Shown here: piece by piece, positions 1,649 to 53,090 of the stretch
Layout of the letters: the number at the start of each line of letters is the position of its first letter
Position numbering within the stretch: the stretch's first letter is position 1
Source of the DNA: a phage
DNA: 64,000 nucleotides
Sequence record: PZ347661.1
Reading direction: 5' to 3' (one strand)
Notes under the pieces: model-generated
The model's database searches: none
The model's input: the letters and a program-made list of their open reading frames with translations, nothing else
Told to the model about the DNA's origin: nothing
Made by a program: the position numbers and the translations under genes

Positions 1649-2701
1649 ATGGCAAGCATTGACTCCTTGACTGTATGTAATTCACGTCAAGCTCGTAACT
1701 TTATTATCCGTGCCCTGAAAGCAGGTAACGTACCATTCCTGACTTCATCACCGGGCATGGGTAAATCTGCAATCATTCGTTCTATTGCAGAAGAATTTGG
1801 TATGAAGCTGATAGACCATCGTCTGTCTACTTCTGCTCCAGAAGACCTTTCTGGCTTACCATTCCGCAATGGTGACCGTGCAGAGTTTATCCCATTCGCT
1901 GACTTATTTCCTATTGAAGGGGATGCTGTACCGAAGGGTTATAATGGCTGGCTCCTGTTCCTCGATGAGTTCAACTCAGCTAAGAAAGAAGTAGTAGCTG
2001 CTGCATACAAACTGATTCTCGACCGTATGACTGGTCAGAAAAAACTACATCCTAATGTGATGATTGTCTGTGCAGGTAACAAAGCTACTGACCGTGCCAT
2101 TGTTAACCCACTGGGTACTGCAATGCAGTCCCGTGTGGTTCACTTCGAAATGGAACTTAACTTCGACATCTTTGTTGAAGACGTAATGATTCCTCAGCAA
2201 TGGGATGAACGTCTGGTTGCATTCTTACATGCTAACCCCGGTTACCTGCATGACTTCGACCCGGCACATAAGAACAAAACATTCTGTTGTCCTCGTACCT
2301 GGGACTTTGTTAACAAAGACCTCAAGAACTTGCCAGAAGGTGCTCTGCCTGATGAAGATTCTATCTACTATGCAGGTCACGTTACTGCTGGTAAGGCTAC
2401 AGAATTTGTTCAGTTTACCCAGGTGTACAATCGTATCATTACGATTGAGAAGGTAGTCAAAGACCCACTGGGCTGTGCACTACCGGATGATAACAACCTG
2501 TGTTGGGCTACTGTTAACCATCTGGCTAACAAAACTACTGAAGAGAACTTTGTTGATGTTCTTCGGTATATTGAACGCTTTAAAACGTTCACCCATAGGA
2601 TTCTATACTTCCGTACAGTAGGCAATGCATTACCAGATCTTCAGGCTACCCCTGAATGGCGTAAGGCTGCTGCTAATATCTCTCGCTACATTCACGGATA
2701 A
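1649..2701 (+). CDS. MoxR-like AAA+ ATPase
   Basis: Walker A SPGMGKSAI, Walker B LLFLDEFN, MoxR/AAA_5-like length of 350 aa. Confidence 0.75.
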   Translation: MASIDSLTVCNSRQARNFIIRALKAGNVPFLTSSPGMGKSAIIRSIAEEFGMKLIDHRLSTSAPEDLSGLPFRNGDRAEFIPFADLFPIEGDAVPKGYNGWLLFLDEFNSAKKEVVAAAYKLILDRMTGQKKLHPNVMIVCAGNKATDRAIVNPLGTAMQSRVVHFEMELNFDIFVEDVMIPQQWDERLVAFLHANPGYLHDFDPAHKNKTFCCPRTWDFVNKDLKNLPEGALPDEDSIYYAGHVTAGKATEFVQFTQVYNRIITIEKVVKDPLGCALPDDNNLCWATVNHLANKTTEENFVDVLRYIERFKTFTHRILYFRTVGNALPDLQATPEWRKAAANISRYIHG

Positions 2702-2708
2702 TCACAAC

Positions 2709-3884
2709 ATGAACCAATTTCCTCAGCACACACTTAGTGATGAACAACTCATGCGTGAGTATGACCGTATTCAGGCCCAAGCCTTCCTGGGCAAGTCTGC
2801 TGCGTTCTTTGGTTCATTACTGTGTAGTCTTAAATTCTCATGGAAACGTGAGGATTGTCCCACTGCATGTACTGATGGGATAGAACTTCATTTCAACCCA
2901 GACTTCTTTATCTGGATGTGTCCAGATGTAAGAGAAACAGTATTAATGCACGAACTATGGCATGTAGCATATCTACATGACATCCGTCGTGGAAGCCGTG
3001 ACCCGGAAGTCTGGAACCAGGCATGTGACCACTTCATTAACCTTCAGTTAGAAGAGGATGGTTACAAGTTCACTGGTATCGACAAGGGCATTTGCAAAGA
3101 CCCTAAATATAAAGATTGGGTCGAAGAAGACATCTACGATGACCTGATGAAGAACCCTCAGAAAAGGCAGAAGCCGTCAGGGGGTGCTGGAGCAGGTCTT
3201 GCTGGCGACATGAAATCCCCTACTTCGGGGCAGTCCCAGGGTGCTGTCGTCAACAACGTAGTACGTGCAATGCAGAGCCAGAAGATGGCTGGTGGACAGA
3301 TGCCCGGTAAGGGTGCTGGTCGTATGGAAGAGGTTATTACCCAATTCCTTAAACCAGTAGTTCCCTGGCAGGAAGTTCTGATAAACTTCTTTACCGACAT
3401 TGATGACACCCATTATACGTGGGCCAGACCTAATCGTCGTTACACTGACATCTATCTACCTTCCATGGAAGATGATGAAGGACGCTTACGACACTTAGCC
3501 TACTTTGAGGATGTATCTGGTTCCATTAGTAGTGATGACTCTCTGCGTTTTAACTCAGAGGTTGCTTACGTTAAGAGCCAATTCAATCCTAAGAAGATGT
3601 CCTTAATTACCTTCGACGATGTTATCCAGGAAGAAATAGACATCACTGAAGAAGATACTTTCGAAGAGATTAAGATTACTGGTCGTGGTGGTACAAACCT
3701 GGAACCAGTACGCGAATGGATTATTAAGAATAAGCCAACCGCTGCAATCATATTCTCCGATATGTATGTTCGCCCAATGGAAGAATTACCATTTGATATC
3801 CCCATCATCTGGTGTGTTCTGAATAATCCCAATGCTACCGTACCTTTTGGGGAGGTAGTTCATATCCCTAAAGGAATGAAATAA
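2709..3884 (+). CDS. VWA-like protein with N-terminal HExxH (putative metallopeptidase-like) domain
   Basis: HELWH motif near N-terminus, Gly-rich linker, C-terminal VWA-like region; directly follows the MoxR ATPase; start moved to ATG 2709 to avoid overlap. Confidence 0.55.
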   Translation: MNQFPQHTLSDEQLMREYDRIQAQAFLGKSAAFFGSLLCSLKFSWKREDCPTACTDGIELHFNPDFFIWMCPDVRETVLMHELWHVAYLHDIRRGSRDPEVWNQACDHFINLQLEEDGYKFTGIDKGICKDPKYKDWVEEDIYDDLMKNPQKRQKPSGGAGAGLAGDMKSPTSGQSQGAVVNNVVRAMQSQKMAGGQMPGKGAGRMEEVITQFLKPVVPWQEVLINFFTDIDDTHYTWARPNRRYTDIYLPSMEDDEGRLRHLAYFEDVSGSISSDDSLRFNSEVAYVKSQFNPKKMSLITFDDVIQEEIDITEEDTFEEIKITGRGGTNLEPVREWIIKNKPTAAIIFSDMYVRPMEELPFDIPIIWCVLNNPNATVPFGEVVHIPKGMK

Positions 3885-4390
3885 TGGTTGTTAACGGTAA
3901 TTCTCTATATCGTTCCTCTCAGTTGCTGGATGTTCCAGACCATAAGGTATCTGAACACGGTGTAAGCTATGGATTAGGTGAAGCTGGTTATGATATTCGT
4001 ATCAAACAAGATATTACCTTCTATCGCTTATTTGGGTTGATTCCAATGGTGAAGGTCGTTGATGGAAATCAAGTATCACGCCATCTCGGTAAGTTCACAT
4101 TGGCTTCAGCAATTGAGAAGTTCAACATGTCCCCATCCTGTGTAGCTATCGTTCACGATAAGTCTACCTGGGCAAGACGTGCATTATCTGTGTTCAATAC
4201 CGTAATAGAACCAGGATGGAAAGGGTATCTTACCCTCGAACTGGTCTATCATGGTCGCAAGAAATTGCATATCCCAGCTGGTTCTGGGATAGCTCAAGTA
4301 TTATTTCATCTGGTTCAGGAACCTGCTAATTACAATGGCAAGTATATGAACCAGGAAAACAAACCAGTAGCTGCAAGAAGCAGCAAATAA
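3884..4390 (+). CDS. dCTP deaminase / dUTPase-superfamily protein
   Basis: Motifs NTVIEPGWKGYLTLEL and IAQVLFHLV...NYNGKYMNQ typical of the Dcd/dUTPase fold. Confidence 0.65.
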   Translation: MVVNGNSLYRSSQLLDVPDHKVSEHGVSYGLGEAGYDIRIKQDITFYRLFGLIPMVKVVDGNQVSRHLGKFTLASAIEKFNMSPSCVAIVHDKSTWARRALSVFNTVIEPGWKGYLTLELVYHGRKKLHIPAGSGIAQVLFHLVQEPANYNGKYMNQENKPVAARSSK

Positions 4391-4399
4391 GGAAACAAC

Positions 4400-4609
4400 A
4401 TGTCAGTATTTCAAGTAACTCATGCAACCTCAGATGTACGTTTAACCATTAATGCTGCAAATGTAATTGCAGTAGAACAGATTCCACAGTCTGACCATGC
4501 ACGCGTCATATTTGTAGATAATAACTATATAGAAACCAAAGAAACCTATCGTTCAGTACGCAATTACCTGAAGAAAGCTCTTGCTCCTGCAAGCAAAGAC
4601 GCTGAGTAA
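4400..4609 (+). CDS. hypothetical protein
   Basis: 69-aa ORF in operon context. Confidence 0.4.
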   Translation: MSVFQVTHATSDVRLTINAANVIAVEQIPQSDHARVIFVDNNYIETKETYRSVRNYLKKALAPASKDAE

Positions 4610-4682
4610 GTAGCTGCCTAAATAGCCCAACATAGTTGGGCTATTTGTGAAGAAACTAACTCAACCTCACATAGGAACCATC

Positions 4683-4925
4683 ATGGAATCTTTAGCAGCA
4701 ATCCTTGTTTTCTTATTCATATTGGCTGTATACCTTATCCCTACTATCATTGCTTTTTCACGAGGCCATGTCTCTAAGTGGGGCATTGGTGTACTCAATA
4801 TCGTATTAGGCTGGTCACTGGTATTCTGGGTAGTAGCACTGATTTGGTCACTGTCCAACAAAGGGCAGAACCAGGTTACAAATGTAACCGTTGTTCAAAC
4901 CAATGGTGGCAGTAAAACAGAGTAA
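4683..4925 (+). CDS. superinfection-immunity (Imm)-like two-TM membrane protein
   Basis: YLIPTIIAFSRGH...LNIVLGWSLVFWVVALIWSL resembles the Imm-family pattern; two TM helices; ATG 4683 chosen (GGA upstream). Confidence 0.5.
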   Translation: MESLAAILVFLFILAVYLIPTIIAFSRGHVSKWGIGVLNIVLGWSLVFWVVALIWSLSNKGQNQVTNVTVVQTNGGSKTE

Positions 4926-4997
4926 CTAATCGTAATAGTCTCATGAGGCTATTACTGGAAGTTACTTCCAGCTCATTGCTTATCCATCTCCTAATCC

Positions 4998-5026
4998 AAG
5001 CCCACCTAACCCGTGGGCTTTTTTAA
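4998..5026 (+). terminator. rho-independent terminator
   Basis: AAGCCCAC-ctaaccc-GTGGGCTT followed by TTTTTTAATT. Confidence 0.7.
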
Positions 5027-5040
5027 TTACAGGTACTCTT

Positions 5041-5421: not shown

Positions 5422-5864
5422 TGCGTATCCCATTCCTAAGAAAAAGGGAACGAAATCCTGTTCTTTATAATAAAGGCATAGAGGATGAGTATGCACTCAA
5501 CAGTAAAGCTCGTTCCTACACAACAAAATTATTTATGGGGACTAAAAACCCTGATAGATTACTGGACTTTGTTTTTGAACAAGTCTTTATCATATACAGC
5601 TTAGCTATGACTGCTGGTTCACAAGAAGTAAGTGATAAGGCAAGAGATGCTCTCTGTATGCTCCGTAAAGAGTATGAAGCCCTCATGTATGAAGACTTGT
5701 ACTCCTTTAAAAAAGAAACCGCTGTAGCGTGTTCTGTGGCTCTTACTGAAGGTGTAGCAGTATTACAAGAACTACCTCGTAGTGAGTTTAAGCTGGTATA
5801 TGTTCAGGTTAAGAGAATCACAGAGACTAGAAGTGGTATCACCAACTATCTAAGGTCATTCTAA
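5421..5864 (+). CDS. hypothetical protein
   Basis: 147-aa ORF, start overlaps upstream stop. Confidence 0.4.
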   Translation: MRIPFLRKRERNPVLYNKGIEDEYALNSKARSYTTKLFMGTKNPDRLLDFVFEQVFIIYSLAMTAGSQEVSDKARDALCMLRKEYEALMYEDLYSFKKETAVACSVALTEGVAVLQELPRSEFKLVYVQVKRITETRSGITNYLRSF

Positions 5865-6808
5865 TGATTAAGGCATCAGTAATTGCAGATTCTGTTCATC
5901 CAGAAACAGGAACTCGTATAACAACCTTTGAATTGGTTTATCCCCGATTCATTCACAGTGAGTTTATGACTCACCGTGTATTCAACCGTAATGCTTCGAG
6001 CAGTCGTGCTATTCCTACCTCTAAGCTTATCGAACAGGTTCGTAATGAACCAGTGATGCCAAGTCACTGGGGCAAGAACCAGAAAGGTATGCAAGCAGAG
6101 GAAGAACTCACTCCTATGGAGATTGGGGATGCCAAGTTTATCTGGGATAACGCTGCATCTGCTGCTGCTGTGTACGCTGAACAACTACGCCGTGGTCAGG
6201 TACATAAGCAGATTGTTAACCGTATTCTGGAACCCTTCACGCATATTCGTGTAGTGGTAACTTCAACTAGCTGGGCTAATTTCTATGGACTGCGTGACCA
6301 CAAAGATGCACAACCAGAGATTCGTGAACTGGCTCAAGCAATGCGTAAGGCACATGAAGAAAGCACACCAAGAGCACTATCATATGGGCAATGGCATATG
6401 CCGTACATTACTCATATTGATCGTGTTGGGGCTTACAATTTCTGCAAACGCAATCGAGTTACACGCGATGAACCAAGTGATGCAGAAGTACATGGACTAC
6501 TTCTTAAAGTAAGTGCTGCACGCTGTGCTCGTGCTTCCTATAACAACTTTGAAGGGCGACCTTCTACTATCGAAGAAGACCTTGGCTTATTTGCTAAGTT
6601 AGTGGAAAACCAACCTATTCATGCTTCTCCAACGGAACATCAAGCTACGCCTATGAACCTTAGTGAGAAGTACGTGAATAACATGAACCCAGTTACATGG
6701 GAACAAGGTGTTACATCCATGGATAAAGAAGGGAATCTGTACTCAGGTAACCTGCTTCACTTTATCCAATTCCGTAAATTAATTCCTGGTGAGACTATTA
6801 CTGAATGA
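5864..6808 (+). CDS. thyX: flavin-dependent thymidylate synthase ThyX
   Basis: ThyX signature region THRVFNRNASSSR (RHR-x7-S-x-R-like); 314 aa. Confidence 0.7.
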   Translation: MIKASVIADSVHPETGTRITTFELVYPRFIHSEFMTHRVFNRNASSSRAIPTSKLIEQVRNEPVMPSHWGKNQKGMQAEEELTPMEIGDAKFIWDNAASAAAVYAEQLRRGQVHKQIVNRILEPFTHIRVVVTSTSWANFYGLRDHKDAQPEIRELAQAMRKAHEESTPRALSYGQWHMPYITHIDRVGAYNFCKRNRVTRDEPSDAEVHGLLLKVSAARCARASYNNFEGRPSTIEEDLGLFAKLVENQPIHASPTEHQATPMNLSEKYVNNMNPVTWEQGVTSMDKEGNLYSGNLLHFIQFRKLIPGETITE

Positions 6809-7044: not shown

Positions 7045-7050
7045 ACTTAA

Positions 7051-7076
7051 GACCTCCTCCGGGAGGTCTTTTTTTT
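7051..7076 (+). terminator. rho-independent terminator
   Basis: GACCTCC-tccg-GGAGGTC followed by a T8 run. Confidence 0.75.
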
Positions 7077-13680: not shown

Positions 13681-13701
13681 AACCCTCTACGGAGGGTTTT
13701 T
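13681..13701 (+). terminator. rho-independent terminator
   Basis: AACCCTC-tacg-GAGGGTT followed by TTTTT. Confidence 0.7.
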
Positions 13702-15575: not shown

Positions 15576-18155
15576 ATGCGTTACATCACCTCTCAAGATA
15601 CGGGTAAGTATCCCATTGCTATCCTCGGTCATCAAATCCGAAGGGAGGAGATGATTAAAACCTACCTGCTGCCTAATGACTTAAGCATGGAAGATTTCAT
15701 CTTCATTGAGCTTCATTCTGCCCCAGGCAAGAAGAAGACTCCTGCAAGGGAAATTAAAGAGTTCATACAGCAGGAACTTCAACAAGTACTGGATGATGCA
15801 GAAACTCAATACATAATCTGTACCGATTCTGATTACTTCAAAATACTGACTAAAGAAGCTAAAGCAGAGGCTAACCTCGGCTATGTTTGTGACTCAATAT
15901 GGGGTAAGCAGAAGGTTATCTATGCACCTAGCTACAGGCAGGTCTTTTATGATCCTCCTGTAGTGAAATCCAAGATTGCTCAGGGTATGGATGCATTACT
16001 TAACCACATCCGTGGGCAGTATGCCGAACCAGGTCAGGGAATCATTGAGTTTGAAGCCTATCCAGATACACCAGAGAAGATTAAAGCCTGGTTAGACCAG
16101 TTGCTTGAGATGAATAAGCCACTGGCTATAGACATTGAAACATTCGGTTTAAAGCACTATAACGCCGAGGTAGGAACAATTACATTCTGTTGGAGTAAGA
16201 CACAAGGCATAGCCTTTAATGTGGACTACGAGCCGATTCCTGGGGCTACTGAAGCACCTTACGGGCGTATCAACAGAAATGATATTGTTCGAAATCTTCT
16301 CCGTGAGTTCTTCATTAAGTACACCCAACGGCAGATGTATCACAACATTAGCTATGACGTGTATGTGCTTATCTATCAGTTATTCATGGATAACCTGATT
16401 GATACAGAAGGCTTACTACATGGCATGGAAATCATGCTACGTAACTGGGATTGCACTAAGTTAATTACCTACCTGGCTACTAACAGTTGTGCCGGTAATC
16501 ACCTTAGTCTGAAAGATCAGGCTCAGGAGTATGCTGGTAACTATGCTCAGGATGATATTAAAGACATCTGTCTTATTCCTAATGAGCAGCTGTTACGCTA
16601 CAACCTCATTGACGGTTTGTGTACGTGGTACACCTATGAGAAGCACTGGGATACTCTCATTGCTGATAACCAATTGGATGTTTACAACAACATCTTTAAG
16701 CCAGCTTGTGAAGATATTATCCAGATGCAGTTAACCGGTATGCCCATGAATATGGATACCGTTAACCAAGTAGCTAAGGAGATGGAAACTGACAGGAACC
16801 AGGCTCTGAAAACTATTCGTGAGTCTAAGCTCATGAAGAACTTCACACTGATGCTTCGTCAGGAATGGGTAGACGATAAGAATGCTAAGCTGAAGAAGAA
16901 GCAAGTAACACTTGCTGACTGTGACATCGAGTTTAATCCAAACTCCGGTCCACAGCTACAGAAGCTGTTATTTGACTATATTGGCTTACCGGTTCTTGGT
17001 CTTACTAAGAGCAAGCAACCTGCTACTGATGGTGACACTATTAAAGCACTGCGTACCCATACGCAGAGTGAAGATGTTAAGGAACTGCTCAATGCACTTA
17101 TCGACTATAAGCTCGTGGATAAGATTATCACTAGCTTTATACCAGCTTTCAGGAATGCCCAACCGGGACCGGATGGCTGGCACTACCTATTCGGTAACCT
17201 CAATCTGGGAGGCACAGTCTCCGGTAGGCTATCGGCTTCAGAGCCAAATCTACAAACAATTCCATCCGGCTCTAAATATGCCAAGAAGATTAAGAAATGC
17301 TTCGAAGCTCCTCCAGGCTGGATATTTTGCGGCTTGGATTTCGCCTCGCTGGAAGACAGAATCTCTGCACTGACTACTAAAGACCCACAAAAGCTCAAGG
17401 TATATACCGACGGCTATGATGGTCACAGTCTACGTGCATATGCTTACTTCGGCGAGCAGATGCCAGACATAGAAGACACAGTAGAATCCATTAACTCCAT
17501 TCAGCATAAGTACAAATCATTACGTAGTGATTCGAAGGCTCCAACCTTCCTGCTTACCTATGGTGGTACTTATATGGGCTTAATGAAAAACTGTGGCTTC
17601 TCTGAAGAGAAGGCTAAAACTACAGAGAAACGTTATCACGATCTCTATGTAGTTAGTGACAGGTGGGTTCAGGCTAAGCTGGACGAAGCTGCCAAAACTG
17701 GCTATGTTACTGCCGCATTCGGTTTGAGAGTGCGTACTCCTTTACTGGCTCAGGTTTTACGTGGGACATGTAAGACTCCGTATGAAGCAGAAGCAGAAGG
17801 CAGAACTGCTGGTAATGCTTTAGGGCAAAGCTGGTGTCTACTGAATAACCGTGCTGGTTCAGAATTTATGCGTAAAGTCAGAGCCAGTGAGTTCAGATTA
17901 GATATTCGTCCTAGTATTCATATTCATGATGCTCAGTACTTCATGATTCGTGACAACATGGATACCTTGCAGTTTACGAACAAGCACTTGGTTGAAGCTG
18001 TTAACTGGCAAGACCATCCTGATATTGCTCATCCAGAAGTTGGCTTGGGTGGGGAACTATCCTTGTTTTACCCAACGTGGGCTAACGAGATTGAAATTCC
18101 AAATCACGCTACCCCAGAAGAAGTTCATCAAATAATTCAAAAGGCATTCGCATGA
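15576..18155 (+). CDS. family A DNA polymerase with 3'-5' exonuclease domain
   Basis: Exo motif LAIDIETFGL; polymerase motifs GLDFASLEDRISA, RSDSKAPTFLLTYGGTYMGL and IHIHDAQYF; 859 aa. Confidence 0.85.
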   Translation: MRYITSQDTGKYPIAILGHQIRREEMIKTYLLPNDLSMEDFIFIELHSAPGKKKTPAREIKEFIQQELQQVLDDAETQYIICTDSDYFKILTKEAKAEANLGYVCDSIWGKQKVIYAPSYRQVFYDPPVVKSKIAQGMDALLNHIRGQYAEPGQGIIEFEAYPDTPEKIKAWLDQLLEMNKPLAIDIETFGLKHYNAEVGTITFCWSKTQGIAFNVDYEPIPGATEAPYGRINRNDIVRNLLREFFIKYTQRQMYHNISYDVYVLIYQLFMDNLIDTEGLLHGMEIMLRNWDCTKLITYLATNSCAGNHLSLKDQAQEYAGNYAQDDIKDICLIPNEQLLRYNLIDGLCTWYTYEKHWDTLIADNQLDVYNNIFKPACEDIIQMQLTGMPMNMDTVNQVAKEMETDRNQALKTIRESKLMKNFTLMLRQEWVDDKNAKLKKKQVTLADCDIEFNPNSGPQLQKLLFDYIGLPVLGLTKSKQPATDGDTIKALRTHTQSEDVKELLNALIDYKLVDKIITSFIPAFRNAQPGPDGWHYLFGNLNLGGTVSGRLSASEPNLQTIPSGSKYAKKIKKCFEAPPGWIFCGLDFASLEDRISALTTKDPQKLKVYTDGYDGHSLRAYAYFGEQMPDIEDTVESINSIQHKYKSLRSDSKAPTFLLTYGGTYMGLMKNCGFSEEKAKTTEKRYHDLYVVSDRWVQAKLDEAAKTGYVTAAFGLRVRTPLLAQVLRGTCKTPYEAEAEGRTAGNALGQSWCLLNNRAGSEFMRKVRASEFRLDIRPSIHIHDAQYFMIRDNMDTLQFTNKHLVEAVNWQDHPDIAHPEVGLGGELSLFYPTWANEIEIPNHATPEEVHQIIQKAFA

Positions 18156-25021: not shown

Positions 25022-25845
25022 TCTGGTAGGTGGCTCAGAAGCTGCTGCTATTTGTGGTAGTGTTCATAATTCTGATGCTATTGCTTATCAGGATTCTGGA
25101 CGTGTCGGCTCCATACATAGCATTTATCATCACTGTGCTTATACTTTGGAAACTCAGTGATAAAAACGGTGGTGACAAGCCGCCAGACTAACAACAACCG
25201 AACCAGTGTGCAGGAATACTCTCCCCTGTGCATTGGTTCAACTGAGACTAATATGAACAAATTTACTATTCACTGGCTCAATGGAAAGGTTAGTTCTTTC
25301 ATGGGTGGAGAACCTGTTGAAGGAAAGAAAGCATTTCACATTGAATCAGAAGGCTGCAAAATCTTAATACCATACGCTTGGTATAAAGATGGTGAAGTAG
25401 AAGCATTAAAAAAGAGTAGTTAATATCGTGAAGGGTTCTGTTAGAATCCTTTGAGATAGGAACTCCTATCATAACCTTTCTTAACTTAATCTTTGCCGTA
25501 TGGCACTGACGCTAGGGGTGGCCCCCCATCCGTCAGGTAGACTATTTTAAGAATGGGTTATCACAGCAAATGTAAAGCAACATTCGGGTTAATCAATGGC
25601 CTCTCCCTATAGGGGCCATTTCTGAATCTTAGGCTATATCCCAAAGGTTAATATCTTTGGGATAAGGCTTCAGATCCCTTATCAACTAACCGCTCAATGT
25701 TGAGCATTTTAATCACATAAGCCCCTATATGGGCTGGGTTAAATGTCGGATAGCATAGCTACCTACAGCATCGAATTGTTAGGTCTTACATGCAAACTAA
25801 ATCATAGGGTAAAGAGGGACTCGTCCTCCCTCCCCTATTATAATG

Positions 25846-25915
25846 GTCGGGGTAGCGCGTAGGCATGTGCAGAAGGTCGCTACTTCTCTCGCTGGTTCGA
25901 ATCCAGCCCCCGACC
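25846..25915 (+). tRNA. tRNA-like gene, 70 nt, isotype uncertain
   Basis: Acceptor GTCGGGG/CCCCGAC 7 bp; T-arm GCTGG-TTCGAAT-CCAGC; D-stem GCGC/GTGC; anticodon stem AGAAG/CTTCT with loop GTCGCTA (possible CGC); short variable loop. Confidence 0.4.
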
Positions 25916-26466
25916 TACTGACATCCTATCAATGAGTACATTAGGCTAACGTGCGGAGGTTTACACTGTAGCCGGTGTAGGTGGAGAAGACGGCAGGATA
26001 GCTACCTGTGCTTAGTGTACTCTTTGATAGTTTTCGTAAGCGATTATGCGGTTTTTTAGAAACGAACCAATAACATAAATGCAAACGATGATGTTGTTCT
26101 GATGGCGGCGTAATAGCCTATAAGTCAGCAAGGTCTTCCGATTCCTTGTAAACAAATTCGGCGCAGTGGCCCGCTGTGATTAATAATGGGCACACAACAG
26201 GTAAGAGCATTTAGGCTACTGAGAAATCATCCGAGGCAATCAGACCTATCTTCTGTTAAGTGCTCTTTCCGTTGTGGTGAATGTGCAGGCTGATGCGCAG
26301 TGGGACGTGGCTGACTCACGAGGATGGCTCAAGCGAATAAGCAAGCTCGACGCCGCCGAATAAGCGCCTTATGCCGGAGATCAGTACCGGCCACCACAAC
26401 AAGTCCAGACGATATCTGAGTGACTATAAAAACAGATGGAGCCAGGTGGAATCCCTGGCAACTAAT

Positions 26467-27102: not shown

Positions 27103-27176
27103 GCCCACTTAGCTTAGACAGGGAAAGCAACCGACTAATAATCGGAAGGTCACTGGTTCAAATCCAGTAGTGGGTA
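27103..27176 (+). tRNA. tRNA gene, canonical cloverleaf, anticodon loop CTAATAA
   Basis: Acceptor GCCCACT/AGTGGGT; T8 A9; D-stem GCTT/AAGC with 9-nt loop containing GGG; anticodon stem CCGA/TCGG; 5-nt variable loop; T-arm ACTGG-TTCAAAT-CCAGT; 74 nt. Confidence 0.55.
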
Positions 27177-27491
27177 CTTATTTGCTGCAATATTCCCATA
27201 GGGAATGGTGCCGTATACGCCACCTAGTTTCTGGTGAAACTCCAGATGCAGCAATCCATTCAGCAGTAACATAGTCCTGATTGCATTGCACTCTAAAGAC
27301 AACACTGGTAAGACAGTCCAGTGACTGCTAATGTACTGTTATTCCCCTCGACGGGAATTTCGCTAGTGAAGGTAACACTTAAAAATCCAAACCTACGTCT
27401 TACTACTATCGGGCTATCAACCCACAGTCGCTTAACACACTAGTGGTAGTAGTTTGACGGCCTAGCCTCGTTAGCTGCGTTAAAGCTACTA

Positions 27492-27517
27492 AGTCCCTCT
27501 TCGGAGGGACTTTTTTA
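27492..27517 (+). terminator. rho-independent terminator
   Basis: AGTCCCTC-ttcg-GAGGGACT followed by TTTTTT. Confidence 0.75.
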
Positions 27518-28068: not shown

Positions 28069-28187
28069 TTCAAAGGTGTATGGTAGTTTTTACCGAAAGG
28101 TACTGAACTACCCGACAAAGTAGTAAGGCTCAAGAAGCCAAAACAAAACAAGCCCTCCTAGCGAGGGCTTTATCATTTGAGGTAGTT

Positions 28188-47532: not shown

Positions 47533-48753
47533 TTAAAGACTACCCGGTACTGGGAGTTTAGCGAAATCTTCATCACTCATAGCGAGTGGGTTTACAATAG
47601 GCGTTGCTTTACGTGTAGCAGCCCGATTAAGGGAAGCTGCTTTAGCTTGCTCACTGTTAGCCAGAGTCTGCTTAGGTCGTGCTACACGCACTACCGGCTG
47701 AACTGCTGGTTTAACTGCTTGTACCGGTTCAGGCTTAGCCACTTGGTTAAATGCACCCTGCTGTGCAAGGAGATTACCAACGTAGTTATAAGCCTGAATG
47801 AACGGAGTACCTACCGGAATCTGACCTAACACCTGAAGACGATTCACTTCGTTAGCAATGGTGTCATAAATACCATTCTCACGCTGTTCGTGAATGGTGT
47901 GGAGTAAGCCACGATTCTGATAAAGAGCATCTTTACTGGCAGCATCCCATGTCGAGCTAATAACACCTAATGTAGCTTGTCCTTCTTGAGTAGACTTTAA
48001 GTCGTCAATTTCGGTTGCAAAATCTGCTTCGGTGTCTGTAACACGGTGTTTGCCACCCTGGTAGTTAATTTCCTCATCAGGATTAAAGTCCAGAGGATCT
48101 GTACCAGAGTCTTTTAACAACTTTTTAATGGCTTCAGGATTCTTTTTATCCAGGTCAATCAGGAAAGAAAGTTTTTCCTCATCCATTAAACCGTTGTTCT
48201 GTAGCATCAGCATTACCTTACGGTACGGCTGAAGTTCTTGCATCTTACGAGTATAGTTAGCACCCATCTGCATCAGGCTAATGGCCTCCTCCGGTGAACG
48301 GGGAGTAATCATTTTGCCGTTAGCTTTAAAAGGAGCCATCAACTTCTCGTAACCTTCCTTATAGTTGAAGTCAGCAGGCAGACCTTCAGACTGTTTGCCT
48401 TCTTCTTTCTGTTCCTGGCCTGGTTCAGTAGTAGAAGGTTCAGCTTTAGTAATCGGCTCACCGTTACTATCAACTTCTGTGTCAACAACTTTATCATCAA
48501 CTTTATCAGAAGTTAAAGAATTTGCTGAATCATCTTCAACTGGCTCAGTTTCAGGGGAGGTTTCTTCGGTTGGTAGGTCTTCAACAGCAGAGGGGTCAAC
48601 TTCTTCATCAGGAGTCTGTACGCCGTTGGTTTCTGGGTTGTTCTGAGTGGAAGTATCTTCCTCAGCAATAATTGCTGGGGCTTCCATATTCAGAATCTCA
48701 TCATCCGACATTGCGAGAATGTCGGAAGCTGTGGTTGCAGCTTCCGTAGTCAT
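47533..48753 (-). CDS. head assembly / scaffolding-like protein (putative)
   Basis: 406 aa with strongly acidic low-complexity N-terminal third; immediately upstream of the capsid gene. Confidence 0.4.
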   Translation of the reverse strand: MTTEAATTASDILAMSDDEILNMEAPAIIAEEDTSTQNNPETNGVQTPDEEVDPSAVEDLPTEETSPETEPVEDDSANSLTSDKVDDKVVDTEVDSNGEPITKAEPSTTEPGQEQKEEGKQSEGLPADFNYKEGYEKLMAPFKANGKMITPRSPEEAISLMQMGANYTRKMQELQPYRKVMLMLQNNGLMDEEKLSFLIDLDKKNPEAIKKLLKDSGTDPLDFNPDEEINYQGGKHRVTDTEADFATEIDDLKSTQEGQATLGVISSTWDAASKDALYQNRGLLHTIHEQRENGIYDTIANEVNRLQVLGQIPVGTPFIQAYNYVGNLLAQQGAFNQVAKPEPVQAVKPAVQPVVRVARPKQTLANSEQAKAASLNRAATRKATPIVNPLAMSDEDFAKLPVPGSL

Positions 48754-51403: not shown

Positions 51404-51910
51404 TTATTCCTGTTCAAAAAGTTTACGGTCAGCCTGAATCTGTTTACCCAACTCAATTAGTTGGCTGTCACGGAGTCTAACAGTTGCCCTGAGTTCTTCA
51501 ACCAAACGTCTGCCTTCTTCAAGACTGTTGTCGAGTCTGGCTGCATGGCTTGCAAGACTTCTGCACTCAAAGGTTCCGGCTTCGGCTTTACGTTTATATA
51601 CCGATGCTCGTCTTTCAGACTGTTGCATCCGGCTGTCGTAATCACTGCTAACGCGAGCAAGCTCGCTTGCGTAATTACTCTCAGCCGTCTGCAACCGGGA
51701 AGTGAGTAACCCGACTTCATAACTATGGTTTCTTTGGAGAGCATTGTATTTGTCCTGTAATTTTTGTGTTGCCTTTTGATCTTCAATCTTTTGGTCATCC
51801 CACTTCTTTTGAACAGTAGACTGTCCATTGGAATTACCCCAAAAGTAAATGGTGGCCCCTAGGACCACCACCAGAAGATAAGGCCAACCTTTAGAGATTA
51901 GCATCTTCAT
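51404..51910 (-). CDS. i-spanin (Rz-like)
   Basis: N-terminal TM helix [16 protein letters not shown] then long coiled-coil periplasmic domain; downstream of endolysin; contains embedded +1-frame lipoprotein ORF. Confidence 0.5.
51457..51720 (-). CDS. o-spanin (Rz1-like lipoprotein) embedded in i-spanin gene
   Basis: Signal peptide with lipobox-like ...[12 protein letters not shown], short Pro-rich mature region; wholly inside the Rz-like ORF in another frame. Confidence 0.45.
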   Translation of the reverse strand: MKSGYSLPGCRRLRVITQASLLALAVITTAGCNSLKDEHRYINVKPKPEPLSAEVLQAMQPDSTTVLKKADVWLKNSGQLLDSVTAN

Positions 51911-52526
51911 TACATGCCTCCAGTGGCACATTGCCTATTCGGTTAGCTACCCAACCATACGTAAAGTCTGGCATGTTTAATGAGGTGTAGTGGTTCAGTT
52001 GTTTGGCATCAAGTAACTTAATCATTACCTGACATGCTGCAACTTTGCCTCGTTTTTTCTGCAATGCTTTATATGCATTAACAGTACTTGTACCGACTTT
52101 ACCATCAACCTGTATTTTAGGGTAGTCTTTGCCATTGCGAGACATTTCATTAAGAGATAACTGCAACCATTTAGCAGGACGAGTTACACCAGTGTTAACA
52201 CCAGCATCTACCAGCTTGTGTGTTACAGCAGGAGATATATCAGCGAAGGCTACGAAGTTAGGCTTAAGTACGTAGTCATCAATGTATATCTCAGCAGCCA
52301 TCTCTTTAGATAAACCTTTCATAGAACCATCCCAACCATACTCAGTAGCCAGAACTTCTTTATGAGATTTAGCTACAGATTGGGTAATACCATAATTAGT
52401 TTCCCCACCTGGGTCACGAGGATTGTTTACATATCCCCCTTCCATATAGAACACTGCCCCCAGGATAGCAGCGACAACTCCTCCCACTGCACCACCTTTC
52501 GCAGCAAGTTTCTGTTTAGCTTTCAT
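51891..52526 (-). CDS. GH108-family N-acetylmuramidase endolysin with N-terminal SAR-like segment
   Basis: EGGYVNNPRDPGGETNYGIT motif of the GH108 family; Gly/Ala-rich N-terminal hydrophobic stretch GGAVGGVVAAILGAVFYM. Confidence 0.75.
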   Translation of the reverse strand: MKAKQKLAAKGGAVGGVVAAILGAVFYMEGGYVNNPRDPGGETNYGITQSVAKSHKEVLATEYGWDGSMKGLSKEMAAEIYIDDYVLKPNFVAFADISPAVTHKLVDAGVNTGVTRPAKWLQLSLNEMSRNGKDYPKIQVDGKVGTSTVNAYKALQKKRGKVAACQVMIKLLDAKQLNHYTSLNMPDFTYGWVANRIGNVPLEACNEDANL

Positions 52527-52776
52527 GTGAATCTTCCTTTGGTCGGAATCGTATTAATCTGCCTACGATGTTTAAGGCAAACAGTGCAATTGCAATATTG
52601 GAACCATGGGGAATATCTTCCAGGATGTGACGAGGTAATCCTGTCAGCATTGGTTGAATGATATCTATGGCAGAAAACATAATTAACCCAAAAGTACTAA
52701 TCTGAATGGATGCCCACTTCCAGCATCTTTTCCAATTAGGTACTAACTCAATCTTTCTTCTTAACCTGCGAACCAT
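52516..52776 (-). CDS. holin-like two-TM membrane protein
   Basis: Two hydrophobic helices (ISTFGLIMFSAIDII, IAIALFALNIVGRLI), immediately upstream of endolysin. Confidence 0.45.
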   Translation of the reverse strand: MVRRLRRKIELVPNWKRCWKWASIQISTFGLIMFSAIDIIQPMLTGLPRHILEDIPHGSNIAIALFALNIVGRLIRFRPKEDSHES

Positions 52777-53090
52777 GCGAATATCTCCCGTCTTGCAGCA
52801 GCCAATACACCAATGATTGCACCTGCCCCAGCCCACACCCACTTACCAAAAATCCCAGCACCAACAACTTTATGTTTAATGGTAATGAACTCTTCAATAG
52901 TAGGTTCATTCTTAGCTAAACTATCCTCCACGTTTTTCAGTCTATTACCTATGTCATTGATTGAATCCCGTAGCTCCACCAGAGTTTCCTCCAGTTTCTC
53001 ACGATCCTGTCTTTCTCTTGTCTGGTTCTCAAACAGAGTCTTCAATCGTTCCTCCAGCCTGACTAGGAGTAGTTCACCCGATTCATTCAT
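52761..53090 (-). CDS. membrane-anchored coiled-coil protein (holin/antiholin candidate)
   Basis: Charged helical N-terminus, C-terminal TM VVGAGIFGKWVWAGAGAIIGVLAAA; first gene of the lysis cluster. Confidence 0.4.
   Translation of the reverse strand: MNESGELLLVRLEERLKTLFENQTRERQDREKLEETLVELRDSINDIGNRLKNVEDSLAKNEPTIEEFITIKHKVVGAGIFGKWVWAGAGAIIGVLAAARREIFAWFAG

Follow-up and report, generated by a model that had tools for sequence, protein, structure and literature searches.

Introduction

The question raised by positions 4683 to 4925 of the phage DNA analyzed here (a stretch of 64,000 nucleotides, hereafter the window) is what a short membrane protein encoded among nucleotide-metabolism genes does for a virulent phage, and whether the hairpins on either side of its gene are part of that function. 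The original prediction proposed an Imm-like superinfection-immunity protein of about 80 amino acids with two transmembrane (TM) segments, bracketed by strong hairpins and likely to serve superinfection exclusion in a lytic phage. The reading that we favor, with moderate confidence, is that of an Imm-family gene that would be expressed in the middle phase and whose product would block the entry of superinfecting genomes at the inner membrane, with an old insertion as its origin and with flanking hairpins that would act on RNA.

Results

Phage and gene neighborhood

The 2.1 kb around imm are 88%–94% identical to 59 phage records, nearly all of them from Gamaleyavirus phages of Escherichia and Shigella. 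The window phage belongs to Gamaleyavirus (G7C-like; Schitoviridae, Enquatrovirinae), a genus of virulent N4-like podoviruses, in agreement with the lytic lifestyle originally proposed. The window has the N4 layout, with DNA-metabolism genes on the plus strand of the left arm and the structural and lysis genes on the minus strand. The positions of the relevant features are given in Table 1.

Table 1. Genes and sequence elements at and around the imm locus (positions are those of the window)
Feature	Position	Strand	Remarks
gp25-like DUF2201 metallopeptidase/VWA protein			First in the local gene order; Pfam/PHROG profiles
dCTP deaminase	3884-4390		After the gp25-like gene
gp27-like ORF	4400-4609		Between dCTP deaminase and imm
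Upstream hairpin AAATAGCCCAAC-ATA-GTTGGGCTATTT	4620-4646	+	12 bp, 3-nt loop; in the spacer after the gp27-like ORF
Shine-Dalgarno sequence AGGA	4673-4676	+	6 nt 5' of the imm ATG; unchanged in 9 relatives
imm-like gene	4683-4925	+	Between the gp27-like and gp28-like ORFs
Variable C-terminal tail, residues 62-80	4866-4922	+	Predicted disordered
Post-stop hairpin GTAATAGTCT-CATG-AGGCTATTAC	4932-4955	+	10 bp including one G.U pair, 4-nt loop
Hairpin CTGGAAG-TTA-CTTCCAG	4955-4971	+	7 bp, 3-nt loop; nearly invariant; probably part of the ancestral gp27-gp28 spacer
Conserved single-stranded spacer CTCATTGCTTATCC...	4972-4997	+	
Intrinsic terminator AAGCCCAC-CTAACCC-GTGGGCTT plus T's	4998-5028	+	Terminator scan
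gp28-like ORF, then gp29-like ORF	Start 5041		3' of imm
ThyX	5864-6808		After the gp29-like ORF
Virion RNA polymerase, 3611 aa	28714-39549	minus	
gp57 homolog	47533-48753	minus	PHROG 2120 name 'tail length tape measure protein'
Spanin, endolysin and holin-family genes (lysis cassette)	51404-53090	minus	About 47 kb from imm

Reading frame and predicted shape

The imm frame runs on the plus strand from the ATG at 4683 to the TAA at 4923-4925 and encodes 80 residues (MESLAAILVFLFILAVYLIPTIIAFSRGHVSKWGIGVLNIVLGWSLVFWVVALIWSLSNKGQNQVTNVTVVQTNGGSKTE), with a start codon that is invariant among the aligned relatives. A GTG start at 4647, which would give 92 residues, was rejected: it abuts the hairpin and lacks a Shine-Dalgarno sequence, and we judged it a non-conserved start because the codon reads GAG in ECBP1.

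Hydropathy analysis (Kyte-Doolittle) placed hydrophobic stretches at roughly residues 3-26 and 33-57, with peaks at 6-21 and 37-54, and these are separated by the basic loop R27-G-H-V-S-K32. AlphaFold2, run with 23 homologs, predicted helices at residues 2-26 and 32-61 followed by a disordered tail, in a model that is only moderately confident (mean pLDDT 69, and below 50 at residues 67-80). Both the length and the two hydrophobic helices of the original prediction are thus borne out. The PDB sequence set contained no match to the protein at E ≤1.

Family membership

The two sequence strings that had been quoted as an Imm-family pattern are present, YLIPTIIAFSRGH at residues 17-29 and LGWSLVFWVVALIWSL at residues 42-57, and the Pfam search that had been suggested as a check returned PF14373 (Imm_superinfect) over the full profile (positions 1-42 of 42) with 60 bits against a gathering score of 27.9 (E 2e-16). 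On the same profile, T4 Imm scores 58.2 bits. The protein also matches PHROG 1039, 'immunity to superinfection' (E 4e-29), and a direct BLASTP comparison with T4 Imm gave E 2e-10 and 28% identity over 82 columns, aligning residues 1-74 with 1-82. Judged by these matches, the product of 4683-4925 is a genuine protein of the T4-Imm family (PF14373), and a superinfection-exclusion role of the gene is supported at the level of family membership. No family in NCBIfam or PADLOC matches the protein, nor does any holin profile in Pfam or PHROGs.

One characterized member stands behind the name of the PF14373 family.

Conservation and distribution

Among 14 distinct relatives, pN/pS is 0.13 for the whole gene, falling to 0.07 in codons 17-60 and rising to 0.31 in the first helix; the imm core is under strong purifying selection. 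Residues invariant in 23 homologs are Y17, P20, R27-G28-H29, W33-G34, N39, G43, W49, W55, and L57-S-N-K-G61, and W44 is conserved in at least 90% of the same homologs. The sequence past residue 61 behaves differently. It occurs as two to three alleles in the relatives, its mean pairwise DNA identity is 64% compared with 92% for the core, and in Bp4 a frameshift truncates it to leave a protein of 67 residues. Taken together, the tail alleles and the Bp4 truncation suggest that the tail beyond residue 61 is probably not essential.

In PGN829.1, only a fragment of 44 residues is annotated. This fragment and the Bp4 truncation are the observations that would favor a chance open frame or a decaying remnant, but the truncations leave the conserved core intact, and the low pN/pS of that core, the strength of the Pfam match, the invariant start with its Shine-Dalgarno sequence, the persistence of the gene at high identity in some fifty records, and its synteny in divergent relatives all point the other way. 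Such a reading has next to no chance of being correct, and the selection and conservation data effectively refute it already.

A tblastn search found the family in 764 phage records, of which approximately 53, at 90% protein identity or more, are gamaleyaviruses. The carriers were surveyed in an evenly spaced sample of 60 of the 764 records, in which those outside Gamaleyavirus were T4-like phages, 45-kb Acinetobacter myoviruses, Salmonella jerseyviruses, and mycobacteriophages. To our knowledge, all of these sampled non-gamaleyavirus carriers are long-tailed phages. In N4-like phages, the position of imm is syntenic down to 53%–67% protein identity.

The exact 80-residue sequence is absent from the public protein collection, where the nearest entries are 94%–95% identical. 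The same gene is found at the same locus in the gamaleyaviruses Bp4 (YP_009113230), IME11 (YP_006990650), St11Ph5 (YP_010659883), SP5M (YP_010659539), and Moo19, and the gamaleyavirus homologs are labeled 'immunity to superinfection', 'putative membrane immunity protein', or gp27.1. In Bp4, IME11, St11Ph5, and SP5M, the gene is 90%–95% identical in the core, and the flanking hairpins and the terminator are common to all. Because sister phages already carry the annotation, the gene is not a new discovery; imm here is an already-annotated accessory gene of Gamaleyavirus. The window version combines tail allele 1 with a post-stop hairpin of type A, a combination that occurs otherwise only in PD205 among 14 sequences.

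Outside the N4-like phages, the closest relatives are in Acinetobacter myoviruses of about 45 kb (AbP2, LZ35, phiAC-1, and their relatives), with 57%–61% identity over residues 17-60. They belong to another phage group with another gene neighborhood, and the likeness is confined to the core domain. P0082 carries a homolog of the LSNKG type (53% identical) on a 41.6-kb contig that is not N4-like, and the DNA of its imm matches that of these Acinetobacter myoviruses.

Flanking hairpins and terminator

Of all perfect hairpins in the 64-kb window, the one 5' of imm is the longest, and the RNA folding of 4607-4690 is more stable than that of shuffled sequences (z = -3.6; none of 200 shuffles as good). 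It lacks a proper U-tract (its tail reads GTGAAG) and was not called by the terminator scan. The base of the stem, AAATAGCCC/GGGCTATTT, is invariant, and the flanks YTRCCT...G.GAAG are kept even where Imm is only 53%–67% identical. In the apical stem we found compensatory changes, with 93.8% of the cells paired and three pairs changed on both sides; 9-12 of 500 shuffles reach these covariation values, so the formal support is modest.

Downstream of the stop codon, the folding of 4923-5032 yields three stem-loops (z = -4.7; none of 200 shuffles as good). All the hairpins that were said to bracket the gene therefore exist, and both flanks fold better than their shuffles. The 7-bp hairpin with a 3-nt loop and the terminator that follows it were also described correctly (4955-4971 and 4998-5024).

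The first of the three stem-loops, the 10-bp hairpin at 4932-4955, was not described in the original prediction. It folds at -9.6 kcal/mol compared with a shuffle mean of -1.8 (0 of 300 as good; RNAfold). Across the relatives, five unrelated sequences occupy this site, and each folds into a stem of 9-11 bp with a stability well beyond that of its own shuffles. Because the G.U pairs fit only the plus-strand RNA, we take this hairpin to be an RNA-level structure of the plus strand.

The second hairpin is kept in all relatives, with the loops TTA, TTG, ATA, and TTC, and the single-stranded spacer behind it includes a motif, CATTGCTTA, that is common to N4. The block 4956-5040 has a mean pairwise identity of 94.8% and both imm-flanking spacers are approximately 95% identical among relatives, compared with a synonymous pS of 0.21 in imm; being more conserved than the synonymous sites of the gene, the spacers are under a constraint of their own. 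The terminator combines a GC-rich stem, in which 5 of 8 pairs are G-C, with a 7-nt loop and the run TTTTTT at 5019-5024, the first two T's of which close the stem, followed by AATT, and it lies 13 nt before the gp28-like start. Its stem is the same in N4 and in every relative, and it is annotated as a terminator in SP5M. The most likely role of the hairpins is one exerted on RNA, in the formation or protection of 3' ends and in partial termination.

It is possible to read such hairpins as promoters instead. Both hairpin sites lie among middle genes, approximately 13 kb from the left genome end. Promoters of the N4 virion RNA polymerase follow a rule of a GC-rich loop heptamer with, on the template, a purine at -11, G at -10, and G at -8 (PMC4496689). 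The stem and loop of an early promoter (5-7 bp, 3-nt loop) are found at 4955-4971, with 7 bp, and the stem at 4620-4646 has 12 bp; the loop regions of neither are GC-rich. As a promoter of this class we rejected 4955-4971, where the template loop, read 3' to 5', is A-A-T with T at -10, G at -9, and A at -8, and where the opposite orientation places T at -11. We likewise rejected 4620-4646, which has T at -10 and A at -8.

A second version of this idea is that the flanking hairpins are DNA-level promoters for the two-subunit RNA polymerase II and not RNA 3'-end elements. Middle promoters of this kind have been reported from the N4-like Pseudomonas phage LUZ7, where hairpins of at least 6 bp with loops of 3-4 nt precede the start site by about 15 bp (PMC9163698), and the conservation of the upstream hairpin and its flanks beyond the needs of a plain stem, its lack of a U-tract, and spacers that vary less than synonymous sites would all suit such a role. 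However, the substitutions of G.U type preserve pairing only in the plus-strand RNA, the RNA polymerase II of N4 is reported to act on AT-rich promoters extending from -7 to +2 and not on hairpins (PMC4496689), and a transcript begun after the 7-bp hairpin would meet the terminator about 50 nt later. We found no transcript mapping for Gamaleyavirus in our literature searches. On these grounds a promoter function seems improbable to us, and an RNA-level function is preferred.

Several further searches with these elements gave little. Rfam returned no family, its sole hit being a chance-level Trp_leader (E 0.49). With up to three mismatches allowed, the motif GGAAGTTCCTTCC recurred in the genome only as a weak minus-strand match at 15769-15784 and one palindrome at 48646-48664 that counts on both strands, and as a genome-wide regulatory motif it was rejected on the basis of having just these two other matches. 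Repeats of CTCATTGCTTATCC in the window were no more frequent than expected by chance. Two other perfect hairpins, at 738-754 and 1571-1589, fall within coding regions and cannot be compared with these elements.

Probable origin of the gene in an N4-type spacer

N4 has no Imm homolog anywhere in bases 1-69,899. Its gp27-gp28 spacer of 113 nt contains one hairpin, TATGGAAATTCC...CATTGCTTA, and the same terminator stem, and it aligns with 4951-5032 of the window at a score of 40, compared with 15 ± 2.3 for shuffled sequences (0 of 1000 as high). The 7-bp hairpin of the window is homologous to TATGGAAATTCC of N4. In the Shigella phage Moo19, the upstream hairpin and the post-imm hairpin are each followed by a copy of TTGTGGAAGTTCCTTC, a perfect direct repeat of 16 nt whose score none of 2000 shuffles reached, and its upstream copy matches the single copy in N4 (4 of 2000 shuffles). 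The place and architecture of imm are unchanged in distant N4-like phages in which Imm is 53%–67% identical.

Given a hairpin and a terminator that are homologous to the N4 spacer, together with the Moo19 repeat, imm looks like an old insertion. The simplest reading of these alignments is that imm and its own 3' hairpin were inserted long ago into a spacer of the form 'hairpin, GGAAGTTCC, terminator', with duplication of a 16-nt site. The upstream copy of the repeat now reads TTTGTGAAGAAAC in the window phage. Moo19 is the only phage in which the spacers before and after imm resemble each other significantly, and it is the 16-nt repeat that makes them do so; in the window and in four of five divergent relatives the similarity lacks significance, with 150-983 of 1000-2000 shuffles reaching the observed score, and for this reason we only infer that the window carries the same duplication in a decayed state. 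The alternative is that imm was lost from N4 rather than inserted here. The hairpins on either side of imm do not form an imm-specific device.

Discussion

Proposed function

The function of the imm product is most likely, in view of its family and its conserved residues, an inner-membrane block to the entry of superinfecting genomes. T4 Imm is described as a plasma-membrane protein that acts with Spackle to prevent genome translocation by secondarily adsorbing T-even phages (PMC7677548, PMC6832632). More specifically, T4 Imm and the tape-measure protein gp29 co-purify, with Imm sitting against the helical-bundle domain of gp29; Imm has been proposed to stop gp29 from opening a conduit or pore in the inner membrane, and the substitutions R33A and W50A weaken exclusion (bioRxiv 10.64898/2026.03.06.709160). 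In pairwise alignment, R33 and W50 of T4 correspond to R27 and W44 of the window protein. Since both of these residues are conserved in this lineage, a block to entry at the inner membrane is the mechanism with the best support.

By this account, imm would be expressed alongside the middle-phase nucleotide-metabolism genes, a timing suggested by its neighbors, and its product would insert into the inner membrane, the presumed location, as a helical hairpin. There it would block a later-arriving phage during the passage of the genome across the inner membrane. If T4 is a guide, it may bind the incoming phage's membrane-inserting ejection protein, with the result that the superinfecting DNA would never enter. 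Because N4 does without the gene, imm is dispensable for the basic life cycle.

It is also conceivable that Imm-family proteins protect the membrane against secondary traumatization or lysis from without, or counter a membrane-acting defense of the host, and leave the entry of DNA unblocked. T4 imm mutants are less resistant to lysis from without and to secondary traumatization (PMC6832632), the window phage has no evident tape-measure target, and PF14373 was defined from one studied member. Against these readings, the direct Imm-gp29 complex of T4 and the phenotypes of R33A and W50A tie the family to a block of genome translocation (bioRxiv 10.64898/2026.03.06.709160), and both residues at which T4 Imm is sensitive to mutation are conserved in the window protein; in addition, no PADLOC defense family matches it. 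We consider these readings unlikely and retain the block to genome entry.

Considerably less probable still is a role as a holin, an antiholin, or another protein that times lysis. The window protein is small with two hydrophobic helices, small phage proteins with two TM segments often have such a role, and T4 Imm itself, in the words of a review, 'reportedly molecularly resembles a holin' (PMC6832632). However, the lysis cassette is far away on the minus strand, Pfam and PHROGs give no holin match, imm lies among the middle genes for dCTP deaminase and ThyX, and the lysis system of N4 is complete without imm. We therefore assign this possibility very little weight.

Possible target and wider relevance

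The mechanism described for T4, in which Imm binds the tape-measure protein, cannot be carried over as it stands to a podovirus. T4 has a contractile tail and its Imm binds its own tape-measure protein, whereas the window phage is short-tailed, and N4-like phages deliver their DNA by means of the ejection proteins gp50 (the virion RNA polymerase), gp51, and gp52 (PMC13434306). For the N4-like short-tailed phages, no tape-measure protein has been established by experiment, and the only label of this kind, which PHROG 2120 gives to the gp57 homolog, is without Pfam support. In a crude hydropathy scan, neither the gp51-like nor the gp57-like protein showed a classical transmembrane segment that would make it an obvious target. 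According to a 2025 preprint, the superinfection exclusion system of N4 is uncharacterized, and the searchable literature reports no exclusion phenotype for any N4-like phage.

The target could be the phage's own ejectosome, as in the exclusion of kin, or could equally be the tape-measure proteins of unrelated competitors. An Imm-family protein has long been retained under strong selection in this podovirus lineage. As a tentative proposal, on which we would place limited trust, the Imm fold may jam an ejectosome of the T7/N4 type (its inner-membrane part, which gp51 forms with the N-terminal domain of the virion polymerase), or may serve as a weapon across families against competitors that bear tape measures. 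If the ejectosome reading is true, the mechanism of the family is wider than tape-measure proteins. If the cross-family reading is true, T-even-like phages and other myo- and siphoviruses would be shut out of an occupied cell.

As such, the finding mainly confirms a database annotation, and its wider value is that of a test case. A family linked to tape-measure binding sits stably in a podovirus, and Gamaleyavirus is the one podovirus group seen with the Imm family in the sample of phage-database records that we examined. The question that it poses is whether Imm can act on an ejection machinery without a tape measure, or against unrelated phages. This is of relevance when phage cocktails with both G7C-like and T-even members are designed.

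Comparison with known systems

The closest characterized system is that of T4. T4 Imm (NP_049660, 83 aa) and the window protein (80 aa) are similar in size and colinear from Met1 to the tail, and both have two hydrophobic stretches; both genes are located among early or middle nucleotide-metabolism genes of a virulent coliphage. The first helix of the window protein is six residues shorter than that of T4 Imm, and the window lineage has an invariant LSNKG motif and a tail rich in Asn, Gln, and Thr of its own. In the preprint on T4 Imm, the protein is described with four helices and not as a simple two-TM hairpin (bioRxiv 10.64898/2026.03.06.709160). HK97 gp15 and the proteins that confer immunity to pore-forming colicins, cited in the same preprint as small inner-membrane proteins that block the opening of a channel by an incoming pore-forming or tape-measure protein, are functional analogs of Imm and share no sequence relationship with it.

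Possible insertion and spread of imm

The putative superinfection-immunity gene imm is bounded by sequences that may bear on its origin. In the imm-carrying Shigella phage Moo19 (MZ358387), imm lies between two perfect 16-nt copies of the direct repeat TTGTGGAAGTTCCTTC, and a hairpin stands immediately 5' of each copy. N4, which has no imm, contains only one copy of this 16-nt sequence, located after the sole hairpin at the corresponding site. The upstream copy appears to have decayed in the window phage. Taken together, the 16-nt repeat around imm looks like an insertion footprint.

The hairpin that follows the imm stop codon (4932-4955 in the window, and at the same position in the imm-carrying relatives L001-L017 and L027-L033) occurs as five unrelated sequences. 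All of these fold into stems of 9-11 bp at about -10 kcal/mol, and thus the structure has been retained while the sequence has been swapped. The hairpin types and the alleles of the imm C-terminal tail have also been reassorted between phages.

Imm is also found outside the N4-like phages. A 41.6-kb Logan contig (SRR30397383) from a non-N4-like phage encodes at 1201-1419 an Imm homologue that is 53% identical and keeps the LSNKG motif, with DUF3310 and DUF1064 genes adjoining it. The homologue matches the imm of Acinetobacter myoviruses at the DNA level, which points to horizontal movement of the LSNKG Imm subfamily. Separately, gp18 of N4 (NC_008720, 7668-7982), annotated as 'superinfection exclusion; similar to P22 gp17', is a candidate exclusion gene distinct from imm, and its site is just left of where the window would start.

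Coordinates of the features discussed, in window numbering unless stated
Feature	Position	Strand	Remarks
Direct repeat, upstream copy	4644-4660		Moo19, about 1166-1181
Direct repeat, downstream copy	4953-4969		Moo19, about 1490-1505
gp25-like protein	2625-3884		DUF2201_N putative metallopeptidase domain and VWA-like domain (Pfam)
gp57 homologue	47533-48753	minus	'tail length tape measure protein' by PHROG 2120 (RefSeq same for N4)
tRNA-Ala(cgc)	25845-25916		ARAGORN
tRNA-Ile(aat)	27103-27177		ARAGORN
GC-rich terminator-like hairpin	396-418	+ arm	start-codon distance examined
GC-rich terminator-like hairpin	4998-5020	+ arm	start-codon distance examined
GC-rich terminator-like hairpin	7049-7070	+ arm	
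GC-rich terminator-like hairpin	13681-13698	+ arm	start-codon distance examined
GC-rich terminator-like hairpin	27491-27512	+ arm	
GC-rich terminator-like hairpin	28150-28170	+ arm	start-codon distance examined

Gene annotation

The gp25-like protein is named 'HNH endonuclease' in PHROGs and several RefSeq records, at odds with its Pfam domains, and in Bp4 its coding sequence is broken into three ORFs. Because the ORF from its listed ATG overlaps the preceding ORF by 77 nt and the protein measures 390-393 aa in relatives, its true start is probably Met29. The tape measure label on the gp57 homologue is doubtful; the protein has neither a Pfam match nor a classical transmembrane segment, and its gene has the portal-side genes on one flank and the major capsid gene on the other, a usual position for scaffolding genes. 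According to the DEV paper, N4 has no identified scaffolding protein. The Rfam gathering score is reached by tRNA-Ile alone of the two ARAGORN calls. In Klebsiella phage vB_Kpl_K57alpha1.2 (OY979416.1), the whole imm region is covered solely by an opposite-strand 10-kb 'virion RNA polymerase' pseudogene, evidently an annotation artefact.

Regulatory potential of spacers and hairpins

The non-coding spacers flanking imm (4610-4682 and 4956-5040) show about 95% mean pairwise identity, exceeding the conservation of synonymous sites in imm (pS 0.21). N4 shares the block on the downstream side, which is made up of CATTGCTTA, the stem of the terminator and TTTTTTAATTA. This conservation suggests that the spacers may have a regulatory role beyond simple termination. 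At the + arm hairpins examined, the start codon of the next gene falls within about 15-35 nt downstream of the hairpin. GC-rich hairpins serve as middle promoters in the N4-like Pseudomonas phage LUZ7 (PMC9163698), and by analogy those on the + arm might act as both terminators and promoters.
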